Positions 807-64,000 of a stretch of 64,000 nt of DNA are shown here, in pieces. The stretch lies in contig PKTK01000006.1 in NCBI GenBank assembly GCA_002869165.1, positions 2,127 to 66,126 of the forward strand, written 5' to 3'. Source of the stretch: Candidatus Parcubacteria bacterium (GTDB lineage Bacteria; Patescibacteriota; Patescibacteriia; Patescibacteriales; UBA12075). Under the pieces are notes generated by a model that searched no databases, was not told the origin of the DNA, and worked only from the letters and a program-made list of their open reading frames with translations. Every line of letters starts with the position of its first letter. Within the stretch, counting starts at the first letter, position 1. The translations under genes were made by a program, and so were the position numbers.

Positions 807-1319
807 TTATTGCAAACCACCGACAGCATAAACTAGCATAACAGCATAAATTAAATCAAACCAAAAAAATCTCAATTTATTTGCAGTCCAAAGCAACCAA
901 TAAAAAGGGTAAGCAAGATAATGGATAACTGTTCCCCCGTTTTTTATTGACTCCTTGCTTTTAGAAACAATGTGTTTTCCATCATGGTCACTCGGAAATG
1001 CATGCATCCCCGAAGAAATAGCAATCCACAAAAACAACCAATATAGAGTGCTATCAAAATATGTCTGGCTTGCAAAATAGCCAAACAAAAAAGTCATTGT
1101 TGTGTTAAGTATCAATGGTCCTGTTGAAATATAGAATGTTTGTTTATATGTCGCTGGCTCTTCATGTAGCACATAACCAGCAGGATTACCAAAGCGAAAA
1201 TATACAACCTTGCTTACCTTAACTCCCATCCAATCACAAAATTTCTTGTGTGACCATTCGTGAATTATTACTCCTGGAAATGTTAACATTGATATTAACC
1301 AACCTGGTATAAAAAACAT
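807..1319 (-). CDS. polytopic membrane protein with HExxH motif (DUF3267-like putative metallopeptidase)
   Basis: 170 aa with several hydrophobic helices. HEWSH follows directly after the first helix. Confidence 0.5.
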   Translation of the reverse strand: MFFIPGWLISMLTFPGVIIHEWSHKKFCDWMGVKVSKVVYFRFGNPAGYVLHEEPATYKQTFYISTGPLILNTTMTFLFGYFASQTYFDSTLYWLFLWIAISSGMHAFPSDHDGKHIVSKSKESIKNGGTVIHYLAYPFYWLLWTANKLRFFWFDLIYAVMLVYAVGGLQ

Positions 1320-5325: not shown

Positions 5326-5326
5326 A

Positions 5327-8042: not shown

Positions 8043-8068
8043 AAAAAAACACCGCAATTATAGTTGCG
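8043..8068 (-). terminator. hairpin plus T-tract between the tRNA 3' half and the integrase ATG
   Basis: The minus strand reads CGCAAC-TATA-ATTGCG followed by GTGTTTTTTT, running straight into the ATG at 8042. Confidence 0.45.
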
Positions 8069-16138: not shown

Positions 16139-16154
16139 AAAAATATATTAGTTT

Positions 16155-22011: not shown

Positions 22012-22012
22012 A

Positions 22013-28038: not shown

Positions 28039-28932
28039 CTACATATTATTTAGTGGATGCTTGATGATTTGACCTCTTAAATGCTCTGCGCTTGCTGATA
28101 AATAGATGGTTGTTGTCTTAATATCAGAGTGCCCCATCATTCTAGACAAGGAATAGATATCACATCCCCCTTCAAGCATAAGTGTGGCAAAGGTATGTCT
28201 AAGCTTATGACTAGAGAACTTTATACCAGAAGCTTCCTTTATCTTCTCAATCAAACGTTTTAAACCTATCTTTGTAAAACCCATATCCCTGTTTAAAGAA
28301 GTAAAAAACTCCGGACAGGTCTTTTTAAGTCTCGTTCTTTCACGCAAGTATGTTTTTAGTATTTCCGCCAAGCGGTAGTTCATAGGAATAATTCTATCTT
28401 TACTCCCTTTTCCTTGTCTTACAAATATTGTTAAGTTTTCCAGATCAACATCAGCAAACTTTAAATTCAATAGTTCTTGTCGCCTCAGCCCGGCGAAAAT
28501 AAAGGTGGCAAATATTGCATGGTTTCTATATCTAAGAAATGTATAGGGGTAAGGATAATTATAAGCTACCTCCAAGAGCCGAATCGCATCCTGTTTGGTT
28601 AGCTTGGGTGGTAAAGATTTTGTTAGCTTAGGAACTTCTATGTCCTCTATCGGGTTGAAAGATATATGCTTTTCCTTGATACACCAAGTAAAGAAAACAT
28701 TAAGAGTGTTATGGTAGCTAATAAAGGTAGCGGGTTTCCATTTGTATTTTGTTCTCCCGGTAACGAAGAAAGCCTTAACTCTAGAATCATCTAGCTGAGA
28801 CATGCGCCTAATTTTTGTACGGTTACAAAAAATCTGTACCACTTGGTTATAGCGATATGTAGTATCCGGAGACAAACCCCGAATATATTTAGCATGATCA
28901 CAGAACTGTTGAACTAATATTTTTATATCCAT
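28039..28932 (-). CDS. tyrosine integrase, tRNA-adjacent (paralog of 7149..8042)
   Basis: 297 aa with HKLRHTFATLMLEGG...GHSDIKTTTIYL. It lies immediately downstream of the tRNA-Thr copy C terminator. Confidence 0.9.
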   Translation of the reverse strand: MDIKILVQQFCDHAKYIRGLSPDTTYRYNQVVQIFCNRTKIRRMSQLDDSRVKAFFVTGRTKYKWKPATFISYHNTLNVFFTWCIKEKHISFNPIEDIEVPKLTKSLPPKLTKQDAIRLLEVAYNYPYPYTFLRYRNHAIFATFIFAGLRRQELLNLKFADVDLENLTIFVRQGKGSKDRIIPMNYRLAEILKTYLRERTRLKKTCPEFFTSLNRDMGFTKIGLKRLIEKIKEASGIKFSSHKLRHTFATLMLEGGCDIYSLSRMMGHSDIKTTTIYLSASAEHLRGQIIKHPLNNM

Positions 28933-48100: not shown

Positions 48101-51100
48101 CGTATTTGCGGATCATCCAATCATAATCAGCATTGGTTGCACTGTAATAATAACCAGCAGTATAGATAGCATTATTTGAATCTATGGTAATGCCATAAAT
48201 CTCATCCCCACCGGCATCGCTAGAAACTGTAACGATGCCAGTGTCGGAATCGCCCCAGGTAATGTCGAGGTCGCCACTCGAGTCGTATTTGCGGATCATC
48301 CAGTCTCGATCAGTATTAGTTAAATTATAATACCCACCAGCTACATAAATGGCATTATTTGAATCAATAGTAATGGCCGAAGCTAAATCCACACCATCAT
48401 TATTAACAACCGAAATAACACCAGTGTCTGAGTCGCCCCAGGTGGTGTCAAGGTCGCCGTTTGCGTCGTATTTGCGGATCATCCAGTCCATAGTTGAATT
48501 AGATTTATAGCCAACCACATAAATGGCATTATTTGAATCAGAAGTAATGTCATAAATTTCACCAAGAGTGTCATATATAATAACGCCTGAATCGGAGTCG
48601 CCCCAGGTGGTGTCAAGGTCGCCGTTTGCGTCGTATTTGCGGATCATCCAGTCACTATTTGAAACATAGTAACCACCAGCTACATAAATGGCATTATTTG
48701 AATCCGTTGTAATAGCATAGGCTTTATCAGCACCATTATTATTAGAAACAGTTATAATGCCTGAATCAGAGTTGCCCCAGGTGGTGTCAAGGTCGCCGCT
48801 CGAGTCGTATTTACGAATCATCCAGTCATTATCAGCATTGCTTGAGTCATAATAATAACCAGCTACATAAATGGCATTATTTGAATCTACGATAATAGCA
48901 TTAGCAGAATCATCACTGGCGCTACTAGAAGCCGTAATAATACCAGAGTCAGAGTCACCCCAATTAGAATCTAAAATTGTATAATCAAGTAACCCGTCCT
49001 TATTATAATCAACATATAATTTAACATCACTAATATCACTAGTTACTACTCCATTAACATTACTTAAATTAAACACAGTCTCTCCGAGAGACATTGTCTC
49101 TCCCTCTGCAAGCAATGAATATGAATAATGAATAGTAGAAGTCGAAGTCTCGCCTGGCCATTTGTTTGGAGTGACGCCAGTAGAGGCGTTTTGAAGAGTA
49201 AGAGCGCCGTAGACAGTAAGAAGCTTATCGTCAGTACTAGCAGAACTTGAGTCTACTCCGCCATCTATGTGGAGTTCTAATAAACCAGTGGAGCTAGCAG
49301 CTTCGGTAAAACCAACAAAGGAAAGCCCGGAAATGGTAATAGCATCAAAAGCATCAAAGTCAGAAGTGACGTTTATAACCAGAACCGAGCCATCTCCATC
49401 ATAAGTAACACTAGAACTAACCTTGGCTAACTGATCCCCACTAATAGTAGCAGTCGTGTCAGTAGTATCCCACAGCATACCCACTGCACTAGTAGCGATA
49501 GCTATACGAATATCATTACTAGCAGTAATATTACCACCAACAAAATCAGTGATAGTAATAGCAGAAATAGAAGTAGTAGCCTGCCCAACTGCAAATACCT
49601 GATCAGAGGCACTGGAAATAGTTGTTCCTTTAGCATGGGTTGTGGAGCTGGCATCACCAACATAACTGATAGCGTAATCAGACACTGTCCCTGTAGCTAC
49701 TATACTACCAAGATCAATCGTCATTGTGTCACCGTTTTCAATATTGGAAACCGTAAGATCAACATAGTAATCGCCAGAGGTAGTGCCTATAACATGACTC
49801 GCATCAGAGAAAATGATAGTACCGCTGGTATCGTTTATACTAACTACTCCAGTTGAAATTGTTTCTGGAGTATATTTCCTTATCATCCAATCATCAGTGG
49901 ATGAAACATAGTAATAACCAGCTAAGTAAATAGCTTTATTTGAGTCTATAGTAATAGCAAGAGCAGAATCATCACCGGCATTATTAGAAACACTAACAAT
50001 ACCTGAATTAGAATCACCCCAAGAAGTATCAATATCACCACTAGAATCATATTTACGAATCATCCAGTCATCATCACTAGATGAAACATAATAATAACCA
50101 GCTACATAAATAGCATTACTAGAGTCTATAGTAATGGCTTTATTGAGATCTGTACCACTATTAGAAACTGTAATTGTACCAGAATCAGAGTCACCCCAAG
50201 TGGTATCGAGGTCGCCATTTGCATCGTATTTATTAATTATCCAATCAGCATTATTTTCAGCTATATAAATAGAATTACTTGAATCTATGGTTATTGCATA
50301 ACAAGAAACTGAAACAATGCCAGTATCAGAGTCGCCCCAGGTGGTATCAAGGTCACCATTTGCATCGTATTTTCTTGTTAGTCCAACACCATATCCTGTT
50401 ACATATATAGCATTACTAGAGTCTATGGTAATACCATAAACAACTTCATTATTTGTAATTATGCCTTCATCATTGACAACTACGATAATACCCGAGTCGG
50501 AATCGCCCCAGGTGGTATCGAGGTCACCATTTGCATTATATTTACGGATCATCCAGTCATAATCAGCATTACCTGAATCATAATAACCACCTGCTATATA
50601 GATAGAATTACTTGAGTCTATGGTTATTGTATATGCAAAGTCACTGCCATCGTTACTAGAAACAGTAACAATACCAGAATCTGAGTCGCCCCAGGTGGTA
50701 TCAAGGTCGCCATTTGCATCGTATTTACGGATCATCCAATCAAGGTCAGCATTACTTGCATTATAATAATTACCGGCTACATAAATAGCATTACTTGAGT
50801 CTAAGGTGATAGCAAAAGCACCATCACTGCCGTTATCATTAGAAACAATAATAATGCCTGTGTCGGAGTCGCCCCAGGTGGTATCAAGGTCGCCATTTGC
50901 ATCGTATTTACGGATCATCCAATCAGTATCAGCATTGGTTGTATTATAGTAATAACCAGCTACGTAAATATTGTTATCTGAATCCATGGTAATAGCTTGG
51001 GCATAATCATCACCAGCACTATTAGAAACTGTTATAATACCAGACTCTGAATCTCCCCAAGAATCCAAAATACCGTCACTAAACTCTCCATTCTCATCAG

Positions 51101-54100
51101 TATCAAAAAATAATATGGCATCAGTAATATCACTACTTACTATACCACTTACACTACTTAAATTAAAAATAGTCTCCCCAAGAGATATTGTTTCTCCCTC
51201 GGCTAGCAATGAATAACTGTAATGAACAGTGGAAGTAGAAGTCTCTCCTGGCCATTTATTTAGAGTTACTCCCTGACTACTGTTTGCCAAAGTCAAAGTT
51301 CCATATATAGCCACAGTCTTATCATCTATACTAGCCGGACTTGAATCCACTCCCCCATCAATATGAAGCTCTAGGGCGCTAGTTGCGCTAACTGCTTCTG
51401 TAAAATTAACAAATGATACACCAGAAATAGTGATACTGTCATTGATTGCAAAATCAGAAGTAATATCTATGACCAAAACCGAAGCATTGTCCTCATATGA
51501 GACTATAGCACTTGCCTTGCTTGATTGCGCGCCACTAATATTCGCCACTGTATCAGTAGTATCCCACAGCATGCTCACTGCCGTAGTAGCTATGGCTATA
51601 CGAATATCATTACTAGCAGTAATTGCTCCTGAAAAATCCGTAATAGTAATAGCAGAAACAGAAGTAGTCGCCTGTCCAAAGGCGAATGACTGGTTTGATG
51701 CACTAGACATACCAGCGCCTTTAGCGTGCGTAGTATAGCTAGCATTACCCGTAAGATTGATAGCATACTCTGATGTCAAACCAGTAATCGAATCGATACC
51801 ATCAAAATCAATAGTCATCCTATCACCGTCAGCAATACCAGAAACTGACATATCCAAAAGGAAACTTGTCTCAGATGTTGTTGACATGAGATAATATGGA
51901 TCAAAGGTGATGGTGCCTGAATTACCTGTGATGTCTACTTCGCCAGTAGAAACTTTTGCGTTTCCCAAAAAACTACATAAATAAGATGTTTGAGCTAAAT
52001 ATAAAAGTCCATATCGATCAATTGTAAAACCAAGATTATAATAACCTGGTGACACAGTGTTTCCACACGCAGTATAACCGTTCGTACCCCAGGTAGTGTC
52101 TAAATCTCCATTTTTATCATATTTTCTTATCATTGATTTAGTGCCACTAAGATAATAGTATCCACTAACATAAATCGAGCCATCATCATTTACAATAATG
52201 GAAGTCGGCCATTCTGTATATATAGTATTTTCATGAATATAACCACCCGTACTTGTTCCCCAAGATGTGTCTAAGCTTCCACTAGAATCATACTTTCTTA
52301 TCATCCAATCACTATCATCATCCAACACAAAATAAAGTTCACTTGAAGAACTAATAGTTGCATCTGGAAAATTATATAATAGATTGATAACTGAAGGAGT
52401 ATAAGTAACTGCCCCACTAGAACCCCAAGTAGTGACTATGTCACCATTTGAATCATACTTTTCAACCCTAACATCAGAAGAGTCATAATATCCAGTAACA
52501 TAGAGTGAGCCAGAAGAATCAATATCTAAATCATAAAGATTTTCGATATAATTCGTACCAGTTAAAATTCTACCGCTATCAGAGTCCCCCCAAGTAGTAT
52601 CAAGATCGCCATTTGCATCATATTTTAAAATCATCCAATCACCATCACTATCATTAAGCAAACAATGTCCTCCAACATATATGCCACCGTTGGCATCAAT
52701 TGTTAGAGCGTAAGCATATTCTGCTGCTCCTGAATCATAAGTTACAATGCCATTGTTGCCCCAAGTAGTATCAAGATCACCATTTGCATCATATTTTTTA
52801 ACAACAAAATCTTCCGTACTATGATAATTTACAAAAAATGAACCATCAGAATCAAACACTATTTTACTAAAACTATTACCACCAACATTAACAGATCCAC
52901 TATTTCCCCAAGTCTCATCTAGTGCGAAATTTCTATCTCTTTTATAAACATAATTTATTAATGTATAATTATAATCTCCAAACATAGCTACATCATAATA
53001 ATCACCAGAATACAAATCAAAAAGTCCTCCTTCTGAATCTTTTTGCCCATCACCATCCAAATCATAATAAATAGCTGCATCGGTAATATCAGAAGCTGTT
53101 ACTCCGCTAATAGCGCTAAGTGAGAATGTACTGTTTCCGAGAAGCATACTTTCATCTCCCTCCGTAACCAAGGAATATGAATAATGAATAGTAGTAGTTG
53201 AGGTCTCACTTGCCCACTTATTGGTAATGGGGCCTAAAGGGTGATTTTCTAGAGTAAGAGTGCCATAGATAGTTACATTAGCTGTGTCTGTATAGTTAGC
53301 TACGCTATCACTACTTCCATCAAGATAGGTAGAAAAAGCTGGAGTGGCTAAATTAGCTGCGCTAAAGTCCTTGAGTGTGAGACCACTGACTGTGATCCTA
53401 TCTTCCGTACTAAAGTCACTAGTCACATCTATGACCAAGATATAATCACTTTCATAAGATACAGTAGCACTAACCAAACTAGAAGCGTTACCACCGATTA
53501 TAGCTGTGTAGTCAGTTGTGTCCCATTTCATGTCTACACTATCTGAATCTATAACTATGCGTATATCATTATTTGCAGTAATTTCACTATCATTAACAGC
53601 GGTAATAACCATAGTATTAATCATAGTATTAGCCTGACCAGATTCGTATACCATGTCACTTGATGAATAGAACGGTGGAATGAATTTAACACTTGGATAA
53701 TATACGTAGCTTGTTAAATCTGAGCCACTAGAGTTAATTGCACGTAAACAATAGGTAGTGTCCGCAGACATAGATTCATTTAGCAGAGAAAAGTCCCAAA
53801 GGCCAATTTTAGAATTATCTAGAGAATATTTATCATTAGAAAAATTATTAGCTTCTTCGTATGTTTGCATCATTACAGTATCAGAACCATACGTCGGATC
53901 AGTAGAGCTAGCTGTTATACTAGTAGTTCCATCAGATACTGAGCTATTGTTATAAAACGAAATAGGTGTAGCCGTAGTAATATCTGTGTAACTTGAGTCA
54001 GCACAAGAGCCTGACAAGGGAGCGTATTGTAATTTCATTGCCACCGTAGAAGTTTCTGCATAACCTCCATAGTTTCCAAGTAACATTCTCAAACGAAATT

Positions 54101-54866
54101 CCTGATCTGTGGCAGTGACTGTAGAAGTTGCATTCGAGTCAGCCAAAACTGGACCAGTAGTAGTTGCGTCTGCGTTTTCATACCACCTGTAGCCAACCTG
54201 ATAAAAATCAGGGGCTACACTTATACTGATCTTGGAGGAAGTAGCGTAGTAGCCATCAACACCTGTATAGAGAAAACTGTCAGCAGAGTCCATAAGAGTA
54301 GTATCCGTGGTTATGAGATACATAAGACCTTCTAAATATGTTGATGTAACTCCACCTTGACCAACATTTACCGTACCTGATCTACTGATACGCACATTGG
54401 ATGTATCGCTCCAAGCAACCGAGCAAGTTGCAGAAACATCATCACTGTCATTGTCATAAAAACCACAAGTGCCTAAAGTAGGACTGGCGCCTGCCCAATA
54501 CGACGAACCCTTAACATAAAAATGTTCCCAATATTCATCACTTGAATCATAAACTAGAGTAGTTTTACTGCCCGTACCATCATATACTACTGACTGAACA
54601 CGATAGGTTTGACCCTGGTTAATATCTCCTGAACTACAAACATCTGTTTCACTGTTTACATTTGATAAAGTAGCCGAGCAGATCAAGGTACCATCATCCC
54701 AAGATAAAGTCGCATCGTCTGTGGTAGTAGCCCCTGCCCAAATCTCAAAACTATCAGTAGTCGCCCAACTAGGTTCAGGCAGAGATGCAGCCATAGCCAA
54801 ATCAGCCGTGAAAAATATACCGACTAAGAGAAATAATATATAGATTGTATGTTTGGTGGAAAACAT
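36114..54866 (-). CDS. giant secreted repeat protein (6250 aa) with stacked beta-propeller-like arrays
   Basis: A single uninterrupted ORF with a signal-peptide-like N-terminus (hydrophobic core, then LAMA-AS). About nine copies of an NDIRIAIA...WDTTD...ISGLSF module are present. Many 55-60-aa repeats (WMIRKYDANGDLDTTWGDSDSGI...AIYVAGYY) resemble the delta-60 repeat. Confidence 0.85.
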   Translation of the reverse strand: MFSTKHTIYILFLLVGIFFTADLAMAASLPEPSWATTDSFEIWAGATTTDDATLSWDDGTLICSATLSNVNSETDVCSSGDINQGQTYRVQSVVYDGTGSKTTLVYDSSDEYWEHFYVKGSSYWAGASPTLGTCGFYDNDSDDVSATCSVAWSDTSNVRISRSGTVNVGQGGVTSTYLEGLMYLITTDTTLMDSADSFLYTGVDGYYATSSKISISVAPDFYQVGYRWYENADATTTGPVLADSNATSTVTATDQEFRLRMLLGNYGGYAETSTVAMKLQYAPLSGSCADSSYTDITTATPISFYNNSSVSDGTTSITASSTDPTYGSDTVMMQTYEEANNFSNDKYSLDNSKIGLWDFSLLNESMSADTTYCLRAINSSGSDLTSYVYYPSVKFIPPFYSSSDMVYESGQANTMINTMVITAVNDSEITANNDIRIVIDSDSVDMKWDTTDYTAIIGGNASSLVSATVSYESDYILVIDVTSDFSTEDRITVSGLTLKDFSAANLATPAFSTYLDGSSDSVANYTDTANVTIYGTLTLENHPLGPITNKWASETSTTTIHYSYSLVTEGDESMLLGNSTFSLSAISGVTASDITDAAIYYDLDGDGQKDSEGGLFDLYSGDYYDVAMFGDYNYTLINYVYKRDRNFALDETWGNSGSVNVGGNSFSKIVFDSDGSFFVNYHSTEDFVVKKYDANGDLDTTWGNNGIVTYDSGAAEYAYALTIDANGGIYVGGHCLLNDSDGDWMILKYDANGDLDTTWGDSDSGRILTGTNYIENLYDLDIDSSGSLYVTGYYDSSDVRVEKYDSNGDIVTTWGSSGAVTYTPSVINLLYNFPDATISSSSELYFVLDDDSDWMIRKYDSSGSLDTSWGTSTGGYIHENTIYTEWPTSIIVNDDGSIYVSGYYYLSGTKSMIRKYDKNGDLDTTWGTNGYTACGNTVSPGYYNLGFTIDRYGLLYLAQTSYLCSFLGNAKVSTGEVDITGNSGTITFDPYYLMSTTSETSFLLDMSVSGIADGDRMTIDFDGIDSITGLTSEYAINLTGNASYTTHAKGAGMSSASNQSFAFGQATTSVSAITITDFSGAITASNDIRIAIATTAVSMLWDTTDTVANISGAQSSKASAIVSYEDNASVLVIDITSDFAINDSITISGVSFVNFTEAVSATSALELHIDGGVDSSPASIDDKTVAIYGTLTLANSSQGVTLNKWPGETSTSTVHYSYSLLAEGETISLGETIFNLSSVSGIVSSDITDAILFFDTDENGEFSDGILDSWGDSESGIITVSNSAGDDYAQAITMDSDNNIYVAGYYYNTTNADTDWMIRKYDANGDLDTTWGDSDTGIIIVSNDNGSDGAFAITLDSSNAIYVAGNYYNASNADLDWMIRKYDANGDLDTTWGDSDSGIVTVSSNDGSDFAYTITIDSSNSIYIAGGYYDSGNADYDWMIRKYNANGDLDTTWGDSDSGIIVVVNDEGIITNNEVVYGITIDSSNAIYVTGYGVGLTRKYDANGDLDTTWGDSDTGIVSVSCYAITIDSSNSIYIAENNADWIINKYDANGDLDTTWGDSDSGTITVSNSGTDLNKAITIDSSNAIYVAGYYYVSSSDDDWMIRKYDSSGDIDTSWGDSNSGIVSVSNNAGDDSALAITIDSNKAIYLAGYYYVSSTDDWMIRKYTPETISTGVVSINDTSGTIIFSDASHVIGTTSGDYYVDLTVSNIENGDTMTIDLGSIVATGTVSDYAISYVGDASSTTHAKGTTISSASDQVFAVGQATTSISAITITDFVGGNITASNDIRIAIATSAVGMLWDTTDTTATISGDQLAKVSSSVTYDGDGSVLVINVTSDFDAFDAITISGLSFVGFTEAASSTGLLELHIDGGVDSSSASTDDKLLTVYGALTLQNASTGVTPNKWPGETSTSTIHYSYSLLAEGETMSLGETVFNLSNVNGVVTSDISDVKLYVDYNKDGLLDYTILDSNWGDSDSGIITASSSASDDSANAIIVDSNNAIYVAGYYYDSSNADNDWMIRKYDSSGDLDTTWGNSDSGIITVSNNNGADKAYAITTDSNNAIYVAGGYYVSNSDWMIRKYDANGDLDTTWGDSDSGVIIYDTLGEIYDITSDSNNAIYVVGYKSNSTMDWMIRKYDANGDLDTTWGDSDTGVISVVNNDGVDLASAITIDSNNAIYVAGGYYNLTNTDRDWMIRKYDSSGDLDITWGDSDTGIVTVSSDAGGDEIYGITIDSNNAIYTAGYYYSATNADYDWMIRKYDSSGDLDTTWGDSDTGIIIASSTAGHDYAYDITIDSSNAIYVAGYYYDSSNADKDWMIRKYDANGDLDTTWGESDTGIVTVSSAAGDDSIQAIVIDSNNTIYVAGYYYDSSNANQDWMIRKYSSELVANGAVSISNDSGTINLATSSNYYMYATSTDFYLELTASNIADGVRMTIDFTSVEATGAVSAYPITLTGDASSTTHAKGTTISSASNQVFEVGQATTSMSAITITDYAGAITVSNDIRIAIATDTVGMLWDTTQDTATISGDQSSKVSTSVTYDGGGSVLLINVSSDFEMEDTITISGLSFTSFTEAASSTGLLELHIDGGVDSSPASTDDKVITLYGALTLQNNSAGPITNKWPGETSTSTIHYSYSTVAEAEPVNFGETIFNLSGVSGVVTSDVTVAQLYIDYNNNGEIEGSLLSQDWGDSDSGVITYSNDAGDDAARAVVLDSKGSVYVAGYSGYNWVIRKFNTYGDLDIGWGDDDSGIITASSAGYARSMVIDSSNNIYVFGQISPGVSRDWMIRKYDSNGDLDTTWGDSDSGIISFINSGVDDPYAIAIDSDNAIYAAGNYDCGSGYCWMVRKYDANGDLDTTWGDSDSGIVTSEGGGYDTNYAQDITIDSSNAIYVAGAYYNSDNLSDDWMIRKYDVNGDLDTTWGDSDTGIITVENVNTNRTDSIYSITIDSSNDIYAAGYYFSSPSSYNMIRKYNSSGDLYTTWGDSDSGIVTSESGLFYNYALNLDPDGSIYVAGFYSQDIAIFKYDSSGNLDTTWGDSNSGMVSFDSGGIDWAYDLALNSGSLYIAGSYYNSSNDDQDWMIRKYNQELAIDGQVDISGNSGTITFATSTSYGNYSSNSTNFILNLTASNIDNGDRMTIDFGSAEATGLLSGYPITLTGDASSTTHAKGVTISSASDQAFAIYQATTTISAITVADYLGGSITASNDIRIAIATTSVPMLWDTTDTTATISGDQSSKVSATVSYEMNGEVLVIDVTSDFAIGDNIIISGLSFADFTEVATSTDVLQLHIDGGVDSSPVDTDDKVVTIHGSLVLANHSDGPILNQWPGETSVDTIHYSYSLVAEGEIMTLGETVFSLSDIRGVVADDITDAMVFVDYNDNNRLNNGIPASWGDSNSGIVAISNNDGDDFSNAITIDSNNAIYVAGEYENSTNSDTDWMIRKYDANGDLDTTWGDSDSGIIVISSDTGDDHAYAITIDSSNAIYVAGYFNDSTLDWMIRKYDANGDLDTTWGDSDTGIITVNGSGIDMAHAIAIDSSNAIYVAGEYYNSSNSSRDWMIRKYDANGDLDTTWGDSDTGIVMVNNGDGNEAIYAITIDSSNAIFVAGDYYSLTNTATDWMIRKYDANGDLDTTWGDSDTGIITVSNDIAWDQVNAIAIDSSNAIYVAGGYSPISTPPGWMIRKYDANGDLDTTWGDSDTGIIKVFHDDLNYDEANDITIDSSNAIYVTGHYKNTNNNDLDWMIRKYDANGDLDTTWGDYNSGIVAISNNDGDDELNAITIDSSNAIYVAGEYENSTNSDTDWMIRKYIPELIIDGGEVSINGSSGSITFSNPVDFDINSTSEDFYLDFAVSNIADGDKMIIDLTSVEAIGQDSNYTISYTGDASSTTHAKGVTISSAADQTFEVGQATTSISAITITDYVGSITASNDIRIAIATSAVGMLWNTADTTATISGNQSSKVSTSVTYDGSGSVLVVDVTSNFEVGDTITISGLSFIDFTKVASSTGILELYVGGLMVDTDDKLITVYGTLDLENHVLGPVENKWLGETSTTTVHYSYSLVSEGESMTLGETVFSLSEVRGVVTDDITNVQLYIDTYDDGKRNTNTTDWTRISYSAGIVTWPGTALIHRITSMANINNTLYIGTFNPDEAEVYRYDGGKSWTKISQETAGTISLGGTSGIDSVWSMANVDDVLYIGTYESGAAEVYRYDGDTNWTLVSSSIPGVITSGGTSDIDYIGSMISIDGTLYIGTSKLADAEVYRYDGGTTWSKVSQEIAGTISSDGSSSINTIESMANVNGILYIGTAKVNFAEVYRYEGDTTWTLVSSSTPGTISLGGTNSISSIGSMISVNNTLYIGTTGGAEVYRYDGDTTWTLVSSSTPGIISSGVTNEVDDIICMANVNNTLYAGTQKTAGGEVYRYDFEYQVTQEANVVISSDTGTITFATSSIYYILATTTNFILQLDAANIANGDKMTIDFSSIVAAGTISAYPIAITGDASSTTHAKGISISSAANQTFEYNQATTSISAITITDYVGSITASNDIRIAIATSAVGMLWNTTDTTATISGNQSSKVDTSVTYDGSGSVMVVDVTSNFTSGDTITISGLSFVDFTEAASSTGLLELHIDGGVDSSPVSTDNKHITVYGLLTMANASTGVTSNKWPGETSTTTIHYSYSLLAEGEDITLGETVFNLSGINGVVTGDVSDVTMFVDRDGDGEFNPFWLYPEWGDSDTGAVIIESDDGGDVVNDIAIDSSNAIYAVGNYYSTTYSDNDWMIRKYDANGDLDTTWGDSDTGIITVSNDGTDNVQAIAIDSSNAIYVAGNYYSSVNTDFDWMIRKYDANGDLDTTWGDSDSGIITVSNNDGNDTIQGIAKDSSNAIYVAGYSYLSSSSYYNWRIRKYDANGDLDTTWGDSNTGIITYTSTDGSDYLNDITIDSSNAIYVGGKLWDSVNLYSRWMIIKYNSDGDLDTTWGDSDSGIIVVNVFGSNTLYSVKVDSSNAIYVGGNAYNSAIGHWEWMIKKYDANGDFDTTWGDSDTGSTTVSNDSSNVNCYDLALDSDNNMFAVGNYSGDWMISKYDSSGDLDTTWGGSNTGYIIVSAGSSPGDIAIGSNDVIYVGGSYYNTTNEDSDWMIRAYNVVTEQEDIEGEVSITGSSGTISFATSTTYNLYATSTDIYLTFTASNIDNGDKMIIDFLSTEVTGVASMYPITLTGDASSTTHAKGTTISSASDQVFAVGQATTSISAITIADYAGIITSSNDIRIAIATSAVGMLWDTTDTTAIIGGGQASKVSTTVSYDGAGSVLVIDVTSDFETLDSFTISGLSFVDFTEVATSTGMLELHIDGGVDSNPVDTDEKTITVYGAINLGNASGGSISNKWPGETSTSTVHYSYSLVTEGEVVNLGNTTFNLSDIVGVETSDITDVQLYIDYNGNSIADGVSVSSGWGDTDTGIISVSSNDGYDYARAMSVDLSNAIYVAGDYYDSTNTDNDWMIRKYNSSGDLDTTWGSSDSGIITVSNNNGNDYARAMSIDSNNAIYVAGDYYDLTNTDQDWMIRKYDANGDLDTTWGDSNSGIITVSNNNGSDYARAIAIDSDNAIYVTGDYYNSTNSDNDWMIRKYDSGGDLDTTWGSSDSGIITVSSDINNDSAYAITVDSDKAIYVAGEYYDLIDGDYNWMIRKYDANGDLDTTWGDSDTGIITISNTGNDSIRAITTDSVNAIYVAGDYYSSVNADNDWMIRKYDANGDLDTTWGDSNSGIVAVSNNGGADYAYTISMDVFYSIYVAGVYFSSANVDDDWMIHKYDSNGDIDTSWGDSYTGTLTVSNNNDDYAHAMVIDSYNHIYVAGEYYSSTNADHDWMIRKYNGPEIVSNGQVSISGTSGTITLATSNSYIYDTPTNIYLDLTASNIEDGDRMAIDFASVSGTGLTSSYSPISYTGDASSTLHAKGVFILSASDQVFEVGQATTTISTITIEDRLGSSITAGNDIRIAIATSVAGMLWDTTDLTATIGGAQSSKVSTTVSYDGGGSVLVIDVTSDFVKDDVITISGLSFADFIKAASTSNLSLHIDGGVDGSPVDSDDKSIIIHGILTASNHSQGVISNKWSGGETFVSAVHYAYSLIGEGEKISLATTTLTLTGISGVFTSDISGAWLYLDIDGDAEIDSNPIATGTVYILDSTGVITFVSPSLYEIATTTATDFIVKLDASNLVNLSGGGEQLSRITIEGDVELEGLVQLETGFTFAGDTMSIDLNSVTGALGNDSEYSIDLSGNPSASVHIVTQ
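37350..52950 (-). repeat. hierarchical coding repeats (supermodules of about 2.1 kb, each with about seven sub-repeats of about 170 nt)
   Basis: The landmark HAKG codons recur at about 51723, 49632, 47494, 45396, 43242, 41415, 39276 and 37116. The string GTCGCCGTTTGCGTCGTATTTGCGGATCATCCA recurs near-verbatim many times. Confidence 0.85.
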
Positions 54867-55018: not shown

Positions 55019-55417
55019 TGTAATTCCTGCGAAGGCAGGAATCCAGAAAAAAATATAATTAAATCATATATTCGAAATAATCTTCCCAATTAGGATTTAT
55101 CTCTTCTATCAATCTAAGCTTCCAATCTCTTTTCCATTTTTTTATTTGTTTCTCTCTTTTAATAGCGTTGTTAACATATTCATGTTTCTCATAATAAACT
55201 AATTTATTTATATTATATTTTGCTGTAAAACTATTTTTATCTTCTTCTAATTTGTGCTGAAATATTCTACTAAACAAACTATTAGTAACTCCCGTATATA
55301 ATGTCCCGTTTTTCTCACTGGCTAATATGTAAACAAAAAACTCATACTCTTTTTTGGGTTTTAGTTCATTGACACGGTTCATATATTTTCTAGATTCCTG
55401 CCTTCGCAGGAATGACA
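55019..55417. mobile_element. GIY-YIG gene cassette bracketed by 25-bp inverted repeats
   Basis: TGTAATTCCTGCGAAGGCAGGAATC (55019-55043) compares with the reverse complement of 55393-55417, TGTCATTCCTGCGAAGGCAGGAATC, for 24/25 identity. Confidence 0.45.
55059..55382 (-). CDS. GIY-YIG nuclease family protein (COG2827-like)
   Basis: The core is EYEFFVYILASEKNGTLYTGVTNSLFSRIFQHK. I set the start at the internal MNRVNEL, because the track's N-terminal extension reads through the inverted repeat (FLRRQESR). Confidence 0.75.
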   Translation of the reverse strand: MNRVNELKPKKEYEFFVYILASEKNGTLYTGVTNSLFSRIFQHKLEEDKNSFTAKYNINKLVYYEKHEYVNNAIKREKQIKKWKRDWKLRLIEEINPNWEDYFEYMI

Positions 55418-55564
55418 ATGGAATAACAAATAGCAAGATAACCCCAGAAAAAAGTGGATCGCAAAGCAAGACAGGGTGTATCACGAATGAGAGATAGTCC
55501 TCTGGAGAAGAAACTACCCTGAGATATGACAAAGAAAAATTTCCATTTTTAAATTTTAAATTTA

Positions 55565-57034
55565 TTAAATTGCAAACATTGCTTCATATCCAAGCACTTC
55601 TTTTGTTGCGCTTAAGAATCCATCTAATCTTTCTGAAGATAAACGGTCTAAGGGATTTTTATCGTCAGTGATCAATACTGCTTGATCAGTGGAAATGGAT
55701 ATTTCTTTGTGCCTAAAGGAAAAATCAGGAACGAAATCGTCATTGTCGGTTGCGTAGGCTAATATATTAGCAAAGCCGTCTTGGGTGGAACTAAAATAAA
55801 TATTTTTAAAAACCGAATTCATGGTCATAGCTAGAGACTGAAGCAAGGCGCTATCTTTTTCACCCAAAATATTACAAAAAACCAAAGCATTATCATTTAA
55901 TCTTGTCTTTAAAAGCTCTAAAGCCTCTTTGGTATGCGTATGATACGGAATCACGCTTGAATGATACAAATCAATATAGACAACATCATATTTTTTGTCT
56001 GTCTGGCGCAAAAATTGCCTAGCATCAGCAATATACATCTCATCATTATCATCCAAATTATAATCAAAATAATCCTTGCTCAGTTCTATCATCTTGGGGT
56101 CAAGCTCAACATAATCTATGGCAAACTTCTCGGAAAACACTTCCCCTACCATGCCTACACCATAACCAAGCACCAATATTTTGGCATCATCTGACATATC
56201 AACAAGTTGTTTATTGATCTGTAGAGCTTCATAGGCAAAACTCTGGTTTTCCAATCTAGAAAAAACTGACTGAGCCGAACCGTCCATTAGCAACATATCC
56301 ACATTCTGCATCTGAGCAACTTTCAAATCAGCGTAAAAACTAGGTTCAGAATGGATAATGGTGACTTTATTTTCACTATTTATGTTAAATATTGGCAAAA
56401 AATACACTAGTAACAAAGCTAAAGCAAAAAAAACGAGTAAAGACCATTTTGTTTTTTCTAATATTAGACCAATAATAGCCAAAATTCCCAATATTAAATT
56501 ACTTACCAAAAGTACTAATGCTAGCGAATAATTTGGAATTAACATAAAACCAGCAAGTAAAGCTCCAAAAAGTGAACCTAGAGTAGAAATAGCAAAAATA
56601 TTACCTGAAATTGATCCAGATTTATCGATTTTTAATGAAAAAAGTCTTATGAGTATTGGCCCGCTCATGCTATAAAAGACCAAAGGTAAGGCAAATATTA
56701 ATATTGAAGCCACTAAAGGACCCCATTTGAAACCGAAATTATCAGAAAAAACAAGCAAATACCGATTAATTTTCAATAAAAATATGGCTAATGTTGAAGC
56801 AGAGGCAATAATTCCGTACCAAAGCTGAAAACTCTTATACTTATCCCCAACTACTCCACCAAAATAATATCCAAGAGTTAAAAAGCCTAAAGTTACAGTA
56901 ATAAGGGATGACCAAACATAGATTGTAGAACCAAAAAAAGGAGCCAAAAGTCTAGCTCCTCCTATTTCCATAATTAGAACCACCGCACCAACCAAAAAAA
57001 GAGTTAAATATTGATAAAATTTCTCAAATTTCAT
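55565..57034 (-). CDS. membrane-fused spermidine-synthase-like (PABS-fold) protein
   Basis: The N-terminal 220 aa or so are polytopic. The C-terminal region has VLGYGVGM and YVELDP...YDVVYIDLY. The start is probably MKFEKF. Confidence 0.65.
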   Translation of the reverse strand: MKFEKFYQYLTLFLVGAVVLIMEIGGARLLAPFFGSTIYVWSSLITVTLGFLTLGYYFGGVVGDKYKSFQLWYGIIASASTLAIFLLKINRYLLVFSDNFGFKWGPLVASILIFALPLVFYSMSGPILIRLFSLKIDKSGSISGNIFAISTLGSLFGALLAGFMLIPNYSLALVLLVSNLILGILAIIGLILEKTKWSLLVFFALALLLVYFLPIFNINSENKVTIIHSEPSFYADLKVAQMQNVDMLLMDGSAQSVFSRLENQSFAYEALQINKQLVDMSDDAKILVLGYGVGMVGEVFSEKFAIDYVELDPKMIELSKDYFDYNLDDNDEMYIADARQFLRQTDKKYDVVYIDLYHSSVIPYHTHTKEALELLKTRLNDNALVFCNILGEKDSALLQSLAMTMNSVFKNIYFSSTQDGFANILAYATDNDDFVPDFSFRHKEISISTDQAVLITDDKNPLDRLSSERLDGFLSATKEVLGYEAMFAI

Positions 57035-57056
57035 GTGTATCACCATTCTTAAATGC

Positions 57057-57443: not shown

Positions 57444-58110
57444 TGTGTTAAATTTAATTATAATCTTAATGTTATTATAACACTTTTAGGTATTTTTTAA
57501 CAAGGATTTTTTTGTGAATAACATAGCTAATAAATTCTACATAAAAATTTGATTTCTTTTGGAATTATATAAATTAAAAAATTAGAAAATTATTTCTAGT
57601 AATAAAAAACTCCCTTATAGAGAGATTTTTTATTCCCTTCTCGAGAAGAGTGGATGCGGAACGGAGTGAAGCAGACGGGGTGTGTTTTGTTTCCAACGTC
57701 TTTTACACCCCTTCTTATTCTCATCGGATACTACTTAATAATTTCAAAGGCCAGACCTCTAGTATTAGAGGCCTGGCCTCTGAAATTGTGGTTACCCAAG
57801 CATAATGAAATAGCGCCTGTTAGGAGCCTGACCTCAACACCCCAAGGGTCAGGCTCCTTTTACAGATCGCTTATTTCTATTTTTGTTTTTTGTAAATTTT
57901 TGCTGTGATTTTCACAGCTTCTAGATAATTTTTTTAAATTATCTAGAAGCTGGGAAAATTGTCCTTTTTTATTAAGAAAAGCGCCAAAAGATTATGCTGC
58001 ACTTCTTGTTAATGATCTTTGATATTCTTCACTTCTTCCACTCTATTTAGACCTCTGACGTCCCCAGGACGTCTGAGGTCTCTCGTTCGTAAAATCCTAT
58101 GCTTTTCTTC

Positions 58111-58170
58111 GTGTCATCCTGAACGCTAGTGAAGGATCTCGGGATCCTTCGCCTGCGCTCAGGATGACAC
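58111..58170. repeat. 60-nt palindromic element with GTGTCATCCTGA termini
   Basis: GTGTCATCCTGAACGCTAGTGAAGGATCTC / GGGATCCTTCGCCTGCGCTCAGGATGACAC, 15 nt downstream of the stop at 58185. Confidence 0.75.
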
Positions 58171-58184
58171 TTTATGTTTAACTA

Positions 58185-58478
58185 CTATCTAGCACATCTA
58201 AATCCAACTGTAGAAGTGGCTATGGTTGGTGATTGTGAGATATCAAGGTCATACAATGCTGATTCACCTCTAATGAAAGCATGTAATACTGTTGGCTCTG
58301 TACCAGTCTTGACTCGTCCGATACCATTATCACTTCCATAATAATATGGAGGTGCGATATTATATCCTTTATAGTCTGCAATCATATAATACTCTTGCCA
58401 GTCATTAGATTGTGGCTCAAAGACTGAAGCATCTGTTACAACCTGGTCAGTCCATTCAGCTACACCGCCGACAATATT
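58185..58478 (-). CDS. in-frame continuation of the 58479..63869 ORF (second half of an FGE-sulfatase/C-type-lectin-like domain)
   Basis: Directly after the TAA at 58479-58481, the same frame reads NIVGGVAEWTDQV...RGESA...VGFRCAR. These are the C-terminal motifs of that domain, while the N-terminal motifs lie upstream of the stop. Confidence 0.6.
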   Translation of the reverse strand, partial: NIVGGVAEWTDQVVTDASVFEPQSNDWQEYYMIADYKGYNIAPPYYYGSDNGIGRVKTGTEPTVLHAFIRGESALYDLDISQSPTIATSTVGFRCAR

Positions 58479-61400
58479 TTATAAAATCGAACCATTGCTA
58501 AAGTATAGATAGTTTGACGAGGTTGCTTCACTTGAACTAGCAATAGCAAGTTGTAAACCATCCAAATCTCTATCAATATCATTTTCAATTACTCTAATAG
58601 CATTTTCAGCAATAGTTAGCCATTCATTTTCAGTCAAAAGATGATAATCTGACCCGAGTTCCTGACAAGCTAGACTTGCTTCACCTTGGTTGATGTTCAC
58701 CCAAGCATCGTTCTCTTCAGCAAATTCTATAGAAGCTTCATCGATCTGAACACAGAAGCCTGGCATGGTTCCGTATTTACTTGATCCTGGGGCCCAAGTA
58801 AAACCGTCATCACAATATGACTCAAAAGCTCCTGCCACAACTTTGCCTTCAACTCCCATATCACCCATGCTTTCGTCAACCGCATTATCAAGAGCTGAAC
58901 CACAAGCACCACCAGAACAGATCATAATCCTACCATCGACCATCATTTCACCAACTACGGATACCTTACCGGTTTCAGCGATACTTACAACTGAAACTCC
59001 ATCAGCTTGGAAGTCAGCAATATCAGCGCTACCTTCTTGGTTAACTACGAAAGCTGTCTTTAAGCTAGTAGTAGCAGAAACTATTTCAACTACAGCTACA
59101 TCAGAGCTAGTTGATGTTCTAGTTCTCTTGATATCGCCCATTCTCACTCCACCATCGTCAGTTACCTCAATAGAGGCACTAAGGACAGTTGTACTTGATA
59201 CTGAAGGCATGCTGAAACTAGCTAGTTCTGCCTCCACAGAAGCTAAGCCTGTTTCTAAAGTATTGATATTTGAATTAATAGAATCTACACTTGTTTCTAG
59301 ACTTACAAGTCTACCCAAAACATCATCCATACTTGAACTAAGAGTTAATAATTGATTATCAACTTCATTAAACTCAACATCAAGTCTTGAATCTAGGCCC
59401 TGATTAAATAGAGCTAATTCCTCGTTAATAATTGGAGTAATCTCATCATCTAGTGATAGAGAATCAACGGCATTAGCAATCAATATTTCAACCTCATCTT
59501 CAATTTCCATATCAGCGATTCTCTCGGTAATTTTATTCTCTACCATATCTACGGTTAAGCTCTTGTTGCGACGTGAAATCAAAACATTGATAGTACCACC
59601 ATGAATAGCGATGCTTTCTGTATTGTTAATTGTTTCTACCTGTGTCTCAGTTGATTCTGGAGTAGTGGAACTAGCCACATCAGTAGAAGTAGATATTTCT
59701 ACAGCTGAGCTAGCTGTATCAGCTGAAATAGCGACTTCAGTAATTACTTCTTCAGATATTGTTATGTCATAACTACCAATTTCAACTCCTTCATCAAAAG
59801 ACTCAAGAGCAACACCAACTGTTGGGTCTCCTGGAAGAGCTCTCATTAAATAACCTGGATTAGAAGCAGCGGATGTCAAAGAGTCACCTGGTCGAATAAT
59901 ACCATTTTCCGTAGAAACTCGAGCTGGAACCTGACCAAGCATACCGATGACTTTGTAATTTTCATTGTCTTCATAGCTTGACTTAGCATTACCAATGATC
60001 GATGGTCTGGTTGAAACTATGCCCATTACATTAGTATCAGCTCCATCCATACATCTCTCAACCGCGTTGTTCTCAGTAATATCCACACAAACTACTTCCC
60101 CAGCTTCAAGGTCAGTATCACGAGTATAGAAATACTCAGCATAGTCAGCCCCACTTCCCGAGAAACTACCTTCAGCATAAACATTACCAGCACCAGTTAC
60201 TCTAAATACAGAATTATCTGTTGATGACGAAACCTTGAATACATCCGAACTAGAAGTATGATTGATTGTTAAATCTGACAAAACTGGAGTTACGGTATCA
60301 TCACTAGTAGAAAAGGCGACTTGATATTGAATCCATTTGTCTCCATCATGAACTGAATTGATATTAACACCTGTAGATGTGGTATAGTAATCACCTGTTC
60401 CAGTTGGTCCATACCAAGTAGCGCCAGATAGGCCACCTTCAGTTGAAGCAGATCTTAGCTTGATTTGAATATCAGTATTCGTTGGCAATGTTTCAGTCCA
60501 TTCAAGTATTCCATATTGAAGATCATAAACATCAACATTAAAAGTCTGAGAAATAAATACACCTGATTCCTCATATTTAACATCATTTCTGTAATATTTT
60601 AACAATGCAGCTGCATCATAACCAAATATAACATCTAGGTCTCCGTCAGCATCCATATCAGCAGAGGTTAGAGCACCATTGGCTCCAACATCAGCAATCC
60701 AAGTGTCTGTAATATAAGACCATGAAGGAGATGAAGTTGAGCCAATATTTTTATAATAATAACTTTTTCCGTCATCAGCCCCTAGAAGCAAGTCATAATC
60801 TCCGTCACCGTCAAAATCAGCAGCCTCTGGGAAAACTCTTATTCCAAAATCATTTGACAACCAATTAGAGCTTACAAGAGACCAAGAGGCCGAGGTGGCT
60901 GAACCAACATTTTCATAATAAGCAACTTTTCCATCATTAGCATCTGAAATTAAATCATAATCTCCATCAGCATCCATGTCAGCAAAACTGTATGATCCAG
61001 TTATAGAAAAAACGCTTGATGACCAATCAGAAGAGGTAGCAGAACCAATATTCTCATAGAAATATGAAGTAGAGCCATCAAGAAAAAAGTCATAATCACC
61101 ATCATCGTCAATATCAACAAACTCTGGCCTTGAATAACTTCCTACATCTATACTCAACCAAGTATGAGTTACTGTAGTCCATGAAGGAGATGTGCTTGAA
61201 CCATCATTTCTATAAAAACTAAGTTCACCATCACTATAACCAGCTATAATATCATAGTCGCCATCGCCATCAATATCAACTACACTAGGAGCGGCAGTGC
61301 TTCCCGCAGGAGCATCATTGACATACGTACTAGAAGCATAAGTCCAATTAACTCCATCTTCAATTAATTGAACATCACCAGCTGTGCCACTATTAACAAC

Positions 61401-63869
61401 TGTAGTAGATGAATGAGTTCCACTATCAAAGTCTGAACTAGTAGTATCTAATACATATGAATTAGAAACTGTATTTAATACTATATCAACATTTCCCGCC
61501 ACCGTTAAAGTTGAGCTGGTAGTAGAAGTGCCAATACCTACTTTTCCGCTACCATCGATCACAAAATTAGAATTTGAAGTCAGAGTATTAGAGTCTGACC
61601 AATAGGCAATCTGATTGGCTGTACCTGATCCATCAATACCAGTAGCAGCATCAGCCCAAGATGTTTGACCATTTGCATCTACCTGCAAATACTGACCAGC
61701 GCTTCCAGCTGTTACTGGTAGATACCAGCTTAGATTGGAAGCTAGAGATGAGCTAGCTTTCCAACTAGCACTGTTTCCACTAACATTGAATAAACTCAAA
61801 GTAGCTCCATTGTCTGATAATATAGACTGATTATTCATGTAGAAAGTATTACCAGAGGTATAGATATCATCAGCGTATAGAGATCCTCCAATAGTTACGG
61901 TAGCAGATCCCATTGGAGATGTTGTGCCAATGCCAATACGACCATTTGAAAGAATTGTCAAAACGGTAGATGAACCAATTGTATCTGATGTACCAAGCAC
62001 AAATGCGCCTAATGAATTATCAATACCCATTGACATATCCATAACATATCCGTCAAAAACCAACCCTGAGTCAACAGGTAAGCCAGAACCAATAGTAATT
62101 GCTGATTGTGTGCTGGTAGCTGCCTGAATAATAAGCTTTCCAACATCATCAACCGTAAAACTTGTATAATGACTATCATCATAAGCTAAGGTCAACTGAC
62201 TACCTGTGCTCTTTACTGTGAGGGCTGAAACTGGGCTTGTTGTACCGATTCCCAATCTATTATTTATATCATCCCAGAATAAGTTTGAACTGTCTTGAGT
62301 TACACCAGAAGCTGAGGTGAATAGAATAGAACCAGCAGTATAAGAACTAGGTGTATCTGACAAGCTCAAGAAATCAGAAGCTGAACTACCAGAAAGACTG
62401 GTTGATGAAATATAGTCATACCCGCCTGAAGCATTGCCAATCAACATATAACCAGCCATAGGCGTGGTAGAGGTTCCCGTACCTCCATTTGCAACAGAAA
62501 GTGGAGCATTGTCTAAGTCAAAATAATTTGCACTTGCATGATCTCCCCAGCCATAAGCCTCTGCCCACTCAGTAGTTGAAGCAGTTAATGGAATATTATA
62601 ATCACTATCCAAAGAGAATTCACCAGTAGTATCATTATAGACTAAACCAGTTGCAGTTGAACTTAGGTCAGTTAAAGCGATACCTGAACCACTAGGAGTA
62701 CCCCAAACAAAATTACCAGCAGCATCTAAAATAAGCGCCTCTCCTTCTGATCCTTGGCTTGTAGGCAATGCCCAACTCAAATCGCTAGCCAAGGCTGTAC
62801 TAGCTACCAAAGATGCACTATATCCATCCTGATTATATAAACTCAATGTTCCACCACCACCAGAAATTATTGGCTTGCCATTCATATAAAAAGTGCTGCC
62901 AGAAGTATAAATATCATCAGCGTATAGTGACCCACCCACAGTTACTCTGTAGGCTGAGCTAGTTGTACTGATACTGATATTGCAGCTGGCATCAATTGTA
63001 AATGTTGAGGTAGATGTTAGAGTATCAACGTCTGACCAATATGTTATTTGATTGGTTGCGCCTGAGCCGTCAACAGTACCAGCTGAGCTGAAACTGGTCC
63101 ATGTACCATTAGCATCTCTGTATTGCATGGTACCAGCATTATCTCGGATACCATAACCTGCTTCAGCAACTGAAGTAGTAGCACCGAAATTAATGTATCT
63201 AGATGCGCCTTCTAGGAAGATATTTCCGTCTACTGTTAGCTTGGATAATGGTGAGGTAGTGCCAATGCCTACCTTACCACCATCCGTAGCGCTAGATAAA
63301 TATATATAACCTCCTCCTCCGTTGCCTAAGACGACACCTGCAGAAGTACTATTTTGAGCACCAATAAAAACATTGTTACCGCTATCATATATAGCTCCCC
63401 TATTTCCAAAATAATATCTACCTGCATTCTTAAACAAAAGATAATTATCTGTACTCATATTAATGCTGCCATTATGCCCATCTGCAGAAACTAATTCTAT
63501 TTTACCTCCATTATCAATTGTCAAAGCTTCACTTGGAGTAGTTGTTCCAATACCAACCTTACCATCACTTGAAACAAATATAGTACTGGTTGCTTCTGGA
63601 TTAGCACTACCGTTACCAACATATACATATCCTTGAGCAAGGGTCATATCTGACAAACTTCCCCATTTGGCATCCCAGACTGATTCTTTTGAATTTACTG
63701 TATTATAGGCTGTGTTCCAGTTTGAGGTACTTGCTATTAGAGGGATATTGTAGTTTCCATCTAGGGTAATTTCGTTACTTGCCAGTGAGAATGGACTTGG
63801 TACTGATGTTATTCTATATAAATAGCCTTGATTCCAATAGGTTGAACTAGCTATGTATTCGTCATACAT
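58479..63869 (-). CDS. giant tail-fibre-like surface protein (segment between two in-frame TAA codons)
   Basis: 1796 aa with repeated (K/R)xGIGTTSPxxxLTV motifs and five FG-GAP-like DxDxDGDYD blades (about 60600-61330). An ADYAEYF...MGIVSTRPSIIGN segment is like Peptidase_G2/IMC regions. A coiled coil follows, then the first half of an FGE-sulfatase-like domain. Confidence 0.8.
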   Translation of the reverse strand: MYDEYIASSTYWNQGYLYRITSVPSPFSLASNEITLDGNYNIPLIASTSNWNTAYNTVNSKESVWDAKWGSLSDMTLAQGYVYVGNGSANPEATSTIFVSSDGKVGIGTTTPSEALTIDNGGKIELVSADGHNGSINMSTDNYLLFKNAGRYYFGNRGAIYDSGNNVFIGAQNSTSAGVVLGNGGGGYIYLSSATDGGKVGIGTTSPLSKLTVDGNIFLEGASRYINFGATTSVAEAGYGIRDNAGTMQYRDANGTWTSFSSAGTVDGSGATNQITYWSDVDTLTSTSTFTIDASCNISISTTSSAYRVTVGGSLYADDIYTSGSTFYMNGKPIISGGGGTLSLYNQDGYSASLVASTALASDLSWALPTSQGSEGEALILDAAGNFVWGTPSGSGIALTDLSSTATGLVYNDTTGEFSLDSDYNIPLTASTTEWAEAYGWGDHASANYFDLDNAPLSVANGGTGTSTTPMAGYMLIGNASGGYDYISSTSLSGSSASDFLSLSDTPSSYTAGSILFTSASGVTQDSSNLFWDDINNRLGIGTTSPVSALTVKSTGSQLTLAYDDSHYTSFTVDDVGKLIIQAATSTQSAITIGSGLPVDSGLVFDGYVMDMSMGIDNSLGAFVLGTSDTIGSSTVLTILSNGRIGIGTTSPMGSATVTIGGSLYADDIYTSGNTFYMNNQSILSDNGATLSLFNVSGNSASWKASSSLASNLSWYLPVTAGSAGQYLQVDANGQTSWADAATGIDGSGTANQIAYWSDSNTLTSNSNFVIDGSGKVGIGTSTTSSTLTVAGNVDIVLNTVSNSYVLDTTSSDFDSGTHSSTTVVNSGTAGDVQLIEDGVNWTYASSTYVNDAPAGSTAAPSVVDIDGDGDYDIIAGYSDGELSFYRNDGSSTSPSWTTVTHTWLSIDVGSYSRPEFVDIDDDGDYDFFLDGSTSYFYENIGSATSSDWSSSVFSITGSYSFADMDADGDYDLISDANDGKVAYYENVGSATSASWSLVSSNWLSNDFGIRVFPEAADFDGDGDYDLLLGADDGKSYYYKNIGSTSSPSWSYITDTWIADVGANGALTSADMDADGDLDVIFGYDAAALLKYYRNDVKYEESGVFISQTFNVDVYDLQYGILEWTETLPTNTDIQIKLRSASTEGGLSGATWYGPTGTGDYYTTSTGVNINSVHDGDKWIQYQVAFSTSDDTVTPVLSDLTINHTSSSDVFKVSSSTDNSVFRVTGAGNVYAEGSFSGSGADYAEYFYTRDTDLEAGEVVCVDITENNAVERCMDGADTNVMGIVSTRPSIIGNAKSSYEDNENYKVIGMLGQVPARVSTENGIIRPGDSLTSAASNPGYLMRALPGDPTVGVALESFDEGVEIGSYDITISEEVITEVAISADTASSAVEISTSTDVASSTTPESTETQVETINNTESIAIHGGTINVLISRRNKSLTVDMVENKITERIADMEIEDEVEILIANAVDSLSLDDEITPIINEELALFNQGLDSRLDVEFNEVDNQLLTLSSSMDDVLGRLVSLETSVDSINSNINTLETGLASVEAELASFSMPSVSSTTVLSASIEVTDDGGVRMGDIKRTRTSTSSDVAVVEIVSATTSLKTAFVVNQEGSADIADFQADGVSVVSIAETGKVSVVGEMMVDGRIMICSGGACGSALDNAVDESMGDMGVEGKVVAGAFESYCDDGFTWAPGSSKYGTMPGFCVQIDEASIEFAEENDAWVNINQGEASLACQELGSDYHLLTENEWLTIAENAIRVIENDIDRDLDGLQLAIASSSEATSSNYLYFSNGSIL

Positions 63870-63941
63870 TCCAGACCACTCTGTAGTAGAGGCTGTTAAA
63901 GGAATGCTATAACCTGATACTACTCCTAATTGATTATTTTA

Positions 63942-64000
63942 TATTTCTAGATTATCTGTGGCTGAAGTTATTCTATTTAGATAGACTGTATCCCAATATG
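63942..64000 (-). CDS. upstream in-frame segment of the same gene (runs off the right edge)
   Basis: The frame reads YWDTVYLNRITSATDNLEI, then TAA (63939-63941), then NNQLGVVSGYSIPLTASTTEWSG-M.... This parallels the next repeat, YWNQGYLYRITS...GNYNIPLIASTSNW. Confidence 0.55.

Follow-up and report, generated by a model that had tools for sequence, protein, structure and literature searches.

Two TAA codons that interrupt a giant surface-protein gene of Candidatus Parcubacteria bacterium are private to a single assembly and most likely represent a sequence-quality problem, not stop-codon read-through. Both were probably introduced by miscoding of the 8-oxoguanine type that became fixed into the consensus of that assembly. 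The stretch of DNA analysed, referred to here as the window, is 64,000 nt long and ends within the gene, the relevant features of which are as follows.

58185..64000, minus strand: 3' part of the giant surface-protein gene, which continues past the window edge at 64000
58185-58187, minus strand: TAG, the true end of the gene
58479-58481 (plus-strand coordinates), minus strand: in-frame TAA, site 1, codon 1840 of the window part
63939-63941 (plus-strand coordinates), minus strand: in-frame TAA, site 2, codon 20 of the window part
58188..58958, minus strand: conserved 257-aa C-terminal module, Cys-rich then distantly FGE-sulfatase-like
61083..61277, minus strand: best-scoring FG-GAP-like repeat stretch (PF13517, E = 2.9e-14)

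Translation of the minus strand from 63998 to 58185 yielded one frame of 1,938 codons with two internal stops, both TAA, and no other in-frame TAA was present across the whole window. The two stops lie within continuous coding sequence at the positions given in the preliminary description, all peptide strings quoted there were found in the translation, and site 2 does fall inside a repeat unit, of the form YW...IPLxASTxxW. Three FG-GAP-like stretches were identified in the protein in all, together with a coiled-coil-like stretch and long repeats rich in Ser, Thr and Gly.

Site 1 interrupts the C-terminal module, and a further 97 codons are open after the TAA. A search with the joined 257 aa returned 49 proteins, most of them from Patescibacteria/Parcubacteria metagenomes and many at 100% query coverage; the module is common to at least 48 Patescibacteria proteins. 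All 20 of the aligned Patescibacteria homologues span the 257 aa uninterrupted with a sense residue at site 1, where the alignment column is occupied chiefly by Y or N. Residues invariant past site 1 comprise W169, T170, W187, Y190, P203, Y205, N211, I213, G214, G219, R230, G231 and G252-F-R-C-A256. The 97 open codons, the uninterrupted homologues and these downstream invariant residues together indicate that the continuity of the frame across site 1 is not a product of chance. As judged from the alignment, termination at site 1 would cost the module its final 97 residues, the invariant GFRCA terminus among them. The interrupted region had been labelled an FGE-sulfatase/C-type-lectin-like domain; that site 1 interrupts a conserved domain was borne out, but the label was weakly supported, since PF03781 scored 18.5 bits against the joined module, below the gathering cut-off of 23.3 (E = 0.0017), and matched only with the two halves joined. 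Seven of 21 family members matched PF03781 at E ≤ 0.01 (best E = 3e-06), and a search of the PDB with the profile of the C-terminal family gave zero matches. The module may therefore be a distant relative of the FGE-sulfatase family at most.

An exact search for a 128-aa protein encoded next to the gene led to four public contigs carrying the same locus, namely ENA ERZ794999 NODE_712 (20-22x), JGI 3300007102 Ga0102541_1282597 (97 kb), Logan SRR5894289 and ENA ERZ794998 NODE_3267 (2.7-2.8x). The window-wide comparison also drew on the remainder of the JGI contig and on another contig of ERZ794999, and covered approximately 62.9 kb of the 64-kb window against one to four other assemblies, which may come from one study or site, their independence being not fully established. 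Exact cluster look-ups assigned the neighbouring proteins to a Candidatus Parcubacteria bacterium MAG (PLX27159 to PLX27177, locus tags C0583_046xx-047xx). Look-ups of the 493-aa/489-aa methyltransferase-like and 528-aa FtsK-like proteins of the window found no exact record, as a consequence of private missense changes in both. A 48-mer around site 1, with N at the variable base, and an invariant 39-mer gave zero matches in collections of genome, metagenome and viral contigs.

The giant gene was 99.87-99.92% identical to its counterparts in the four other assemblies. The alignment contained zero gaps, in agreement with the earlier observation that neither stop is accompanied by a frameshift. 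Site 1 was GAA (Glu) in four of four assemblies and site 2 was TCA (Ser) in both of the assemblies reaching that far. The changes private to the window were thus GAA>TAA, a coding-strand G>T at 58481, and TCA>TAA, a coding-strand C>A at 63940. The frames in the other assemblies ran for 1,092 to 3,086 codons of retrieved DNA with zero internal stops and closed with the identical ...GFRCAR-TAG; in ERZ794999 the product was called as at least 3,897 aa, unbroken. The preliminary description had named a sense codon at these sites, as revealed by read pile-ups, as the observation that would reduce the stops to assembly or consensus error. Sense codons were indeed present at both sites, as established through other assemblies and not through read pile-ups. 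Of the explanations it had offered, polymorphism or consensus error was upheld and a switch operated by read-through or suppression was contradicted.

Programmed read-through, a suppressor tRNA or reassignment of TAA would have both codons translated, with the stops acting as an expression switch. The frame does continue unshifted past both stops, site 1 lies inside a conserved domain and the local sequence TATAAAATA is common to both. Against this, the stops vary within the species and the homologues bear sense residues at site 1, so that a stop is kept at neither site in conspecific assemblies. The shared 9-mer TATAAAATA was rejected as a signal, since it arose from the two substitutions in AT-rich surroundings; the corresponding sequences of the other assemblies are TAGAAAATA and TATCAAATA. 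TAA was also the commonest terminator, closing 24 of 42 long minus-strand ORFs (TAG 13, TGA 5), which accords with its description as a normal stop of neighbouring genes such as 807..1319; the neighbouring 6,250-aa gene likewise ends in TAA. ARAGORN detected no tRNA, suppressor tRNAs included, in the window or among the loci retrieved from the same genome (approximately 73 kb), where related DNA extended past the window by some 5.7 kb on the low-coordinate side and 3.4 kb on the high-coordinate side, and Rfam gave zero matches at gathering thresholds. The likeness to programmed read-through or reassignment is one of surface appearance, namely a stop beyond which the reading frame stays open, whereas here the stop is unconserved, TAA is the main terminator, no suppressor tRNA was detected in the DNA covered and no conserved context accompanies the stop. 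Translation of the two TAAs by any of these routes is considered extremely improbable.

Across the ~62.9 kb compared, the window carried 22 private single-base differences and zero small indels, a rate of approximately 3.5 private changes per 10 kb (3.5e-4 per base). An assembly built from long reads only is made less likely by the absence of indels. On the coding strand the spectrum consisted of 12 C>A, 8 G>T, 1 C>T and 1 A>T, such that 20 of the 22 were G:C→T:A transversions (probability of 20 or more under uniform substitution, 7e-17). The base 8-oxoguanine pairs with A and leaves G:C→T:A as its miscoding signature, and the most easily oxidised guanine is the 5' G of GG. A 3' G followed the changed G in 10 of the 20 transversions, against a background of 19.8% (p = 0.0024), and a 3' purine in 19. 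Spectrum and GG context together point to 8-oxoguanine miscoding. At the changed sites no motif was found beyond the GG/G-purine context, methylation-linked base-calling error having been considered. G>T and C>A changes fell into 9 runs along the window against 10.6 expected, as counted by hand, a difference that is not significant and gives no sign of strand-coordinated damage. The consequences of the 22 changes were compared with the shares expected for random G:C→T:A changes on the window sequence:

Missense: 15/22 observed, 73.7% expected
Synonymous: 4/22 observed, 9.7% expected
Nonsense: 2/22 observed, 9.8% expected
Intergenic: 1/22 observed, 6.7% expected

These shares fit the neutral expectation and show no sign of purifying selection. 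Among 20 random G:C→T:A changes 1.96 nonsense changes would be expected and 2 were seen; the two TAAs are thus what some 20 unselected changes of this type would yield. The preliminary description had held that many other disrupted genes would indicate general decay. This was borne out in a specific form, as 20 further private substitutions, nearly all G:C→T:A, with zero further nonsense codons. As regards a nonsense pseudogene, frameshifts were absent, the gene was intact in four assemblies and the same class of change occurred in housekeeping genes elsewhere in the window. Among the private missense changes, FBA G232C affects a variable position of the motif, and is uninformative on hits to invariant residues.

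The second giant gene, in which both TAAs lie, makes up 9% of the length compared and received 6 of the 22 private changes (p = 0.013). Besides those that created the stops, they were as follows, with bases given for the coding strand.

58500, minus strand: G>T, Leu>Phe (TTG>TTT), on the coding strand 19 nt upstream of the site 1 TAA
59067, minus strand: C>T, synonymous
62145, minus strand: G>T, Glu>Asp
62984, minus strand: G>T, Gly>Cys

Every difference among the five versions of the locus was a singleton, with zero variants common to any two assemblies. The JGI contig had four definite and two probable private changes, all G:C→T:A. One of them, a G>T at window position 52163, converts GGA to TGA in the 6,250-aa giant gene. 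The window and ERZ794999 both carry this gene intact; in JGI the TGA splits it into gene calls of 901 aa and 5,392 aa. The remaining JGI differences were at 42501, 24649 and 24017, and probably also at 44894 and 6356. ERZ794998 (2.7-2.8x) differed privately at 7 positions in approximately 8 kb, 4 of them G:C→T:A, and ERZ794999 (20-22x) at 1 position in approximately 57 kb. Private changes were thus densest in the 2.7x assembly and sparsest in the 20x one.

A technical origin is favoured by the singletons, by the recurrence of the same change class in other assemblies and by the highest load at the lowest depth. It is favoured also by the character of natural divergence, since transitions made up 58-59% of the differences between hsdR of the window and its four relatives from other genomes, but numbered only 1 of 22 among the private changes. 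Artefacts of C>A/G>T arising from 8-oxoG formed during library shearing have been documented (Costello et al. 2013, PMC3616734). The window resembles that artefact in its near-exclusive G:C→T:A spectrum, in being private to one data set, in the lack of selection and in the oxidation-prone guanine contexts. It differs in that the documented artefact is of low allelic fraction in deep data (PMC3616734), whereas consensus changes are seen here, which would need very low depth or amplification from a small number of templates. The documented artefact is moreover defined by a read-orientation bias (G>T in read 1, C>A in read 2), while the changes described here are known from the consensus alone.

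Under this explanation, template guanines would have been oxidised at extraction, shearing or amplification, a polymerase would have copied oxidised guanine as T, and the miscoded bases would have reached the consensus because reads or template molecules from the organism were few. The damage would then have arisen in vitro and not in the cell, consensus error would be the source of both TAAs, and in the organism the giant gene would be intact and translated conventionally to its TAG, without read-through, suppression or recoding. The length of the gap-free 64-kb stretch counts against an artefact, being unlike the usual product of a very low-coverage assembly.

The same spectrum is equally a signature of GO-repair deficiency in vivo. 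The changes could accordingly be real and very recent 8-oxoG mutations of a subpopulation or clone, arising, for example, in a lineage without MutY/MutM-type repair or under oxidative stress, with the TAAs as nonsense alleles truncating a dispensable giant surface protein. The GG context reflects the chemistry of guanine oxidation and is silent on where the oxidation happened, and the window is a long, clean, indel-free contig. The modest enrichment of changes in the giant gene would also suit this reading, as would the distribution of nonsense changes: all three (two in the window, one in JGI) fell in giant genes, which hold 37.7% of possible nonsense sites (p = 0.054), and this confinement could hint at selection on real mutations. 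Opposed to it are the neutral proportions of nonsense and missense changes, with purifying selection not seen, and the rate of change, which if extrapolated to a genome of ~1 Mb would amount to unselected changes in the hundreds and nonsense codons in the tens. A collection of 153 billion gene positions contained none of the variant proteins of the window. A MutY/MutM (GO system) mutator would resemble the data in its G:C→T:A-dominated spectrum and in nonsense changes of the GAA>TAA and TCA>TAA type, but a clonal lineage is not evident here: no variant is held in common, and in the sister assemblies the load tracks low coverage, a pattern of errors and not of lineages. Recent mutation in the cell is on balance judged unlikely. 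It is more doubtful still that the changes represent standing variation left by unrepaired guanine oxidation in an organism lacking GO repair, with nonsense alleles tolerated or favoured in giant surface-protein genes; were this so, subpopulations would differ in the giant adhesin-like protein that they display. Whether the changes arose as artefact or in vivo, the giant gene of the population is intact and read-through has no part in either case.

In-frame stops in the giant genes of uncultivated bacteria invite ideas of recoding, and comparison with sister assemblies can reveal them as one-off substitutions. Fine-scale use of the window and JGI records, for instance in analyses of SNPs, dN/dS or pseudogene counts, would be misled, and a data-quality flag is warranted for the window record, with 15 private missense changes, and for the JGI contig, with at least 4 private changes. 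Outside that flag the finding itself is ordinary. If the changes were real, they would represent a spectrum dominated by oxidative mutation in a CPR bacterium.

Downstream of the giant gene lies a gene-free spacer of 742 nt that contains three strong palindromes.

58111..58170, no strand assigned: palindrome 1, 28-nt arms (86% complementary), GTGTCATCCTGA...TCAGGATGACAC, 15 nt after the TAG stop
57908-57959: palindrome 2, 24-nt arms (96% complementary)
57822-57858: palindrome 3, 12-nt arms (100% complementary)

The first of these is identical in the other assemblies and may be a terminator or a repeat element; its arm, GTCATCCTGA...GAAGGATC (58111-58170), looks like a dispersed repeat element. 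Between the giant genes are a small GIY-YIG-domain gene (55059-55532), for which the other assemblies have a 107-aa call, and, adjoining it, a spermidine-synthase-like methyltransferase gene (489/493 aa, 55565-57046). Within the giant gene at 36114-54866 the window is without one unit of a propeller-like tandem repeat (EVYRYDG...TLYIGT), at approximately 41764-41993, which measures 159 nt (53 aa) in JGI and 153 nt (51 aa) in ERZ794999. The difference is in frame and is due either to collapse of the repeat in assembly or to real variation in copy number.

A mobile-element-like block occupies approximately 4400-29000 of the window, within a bacterial chromosomal context of TIM, FBA and ScpA/B genes, and contains the following.

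4429-5373, 7149-8057, 8323-9267 and 28039-28932: four tyrosine-recombinase genes
5574-6992: TerL-like ATPase
14163-15749: FtsK/SpoIIIE-like protein
19045-26131: type I restriction system, with two HsdM, HsdS and HsdR

Close relatives of its hsdR were found in locus L011 at 19645-21206 (GCA_003934915.1, RRYU01000042.1) and in locus L013 at 15373-16595, and the relatives share more than 90% protein identity and 77-79% DNA identity with the gene of the window. Their contexts are unrelated: L012 has phage structural genes, and L011 has a bAvd gene paired with a reverse transcriptase, as is typical of diversity-generating retroelements. The occurrence of these relatives in unrelated contexts suggests that the restriction system is horizontally mobile.
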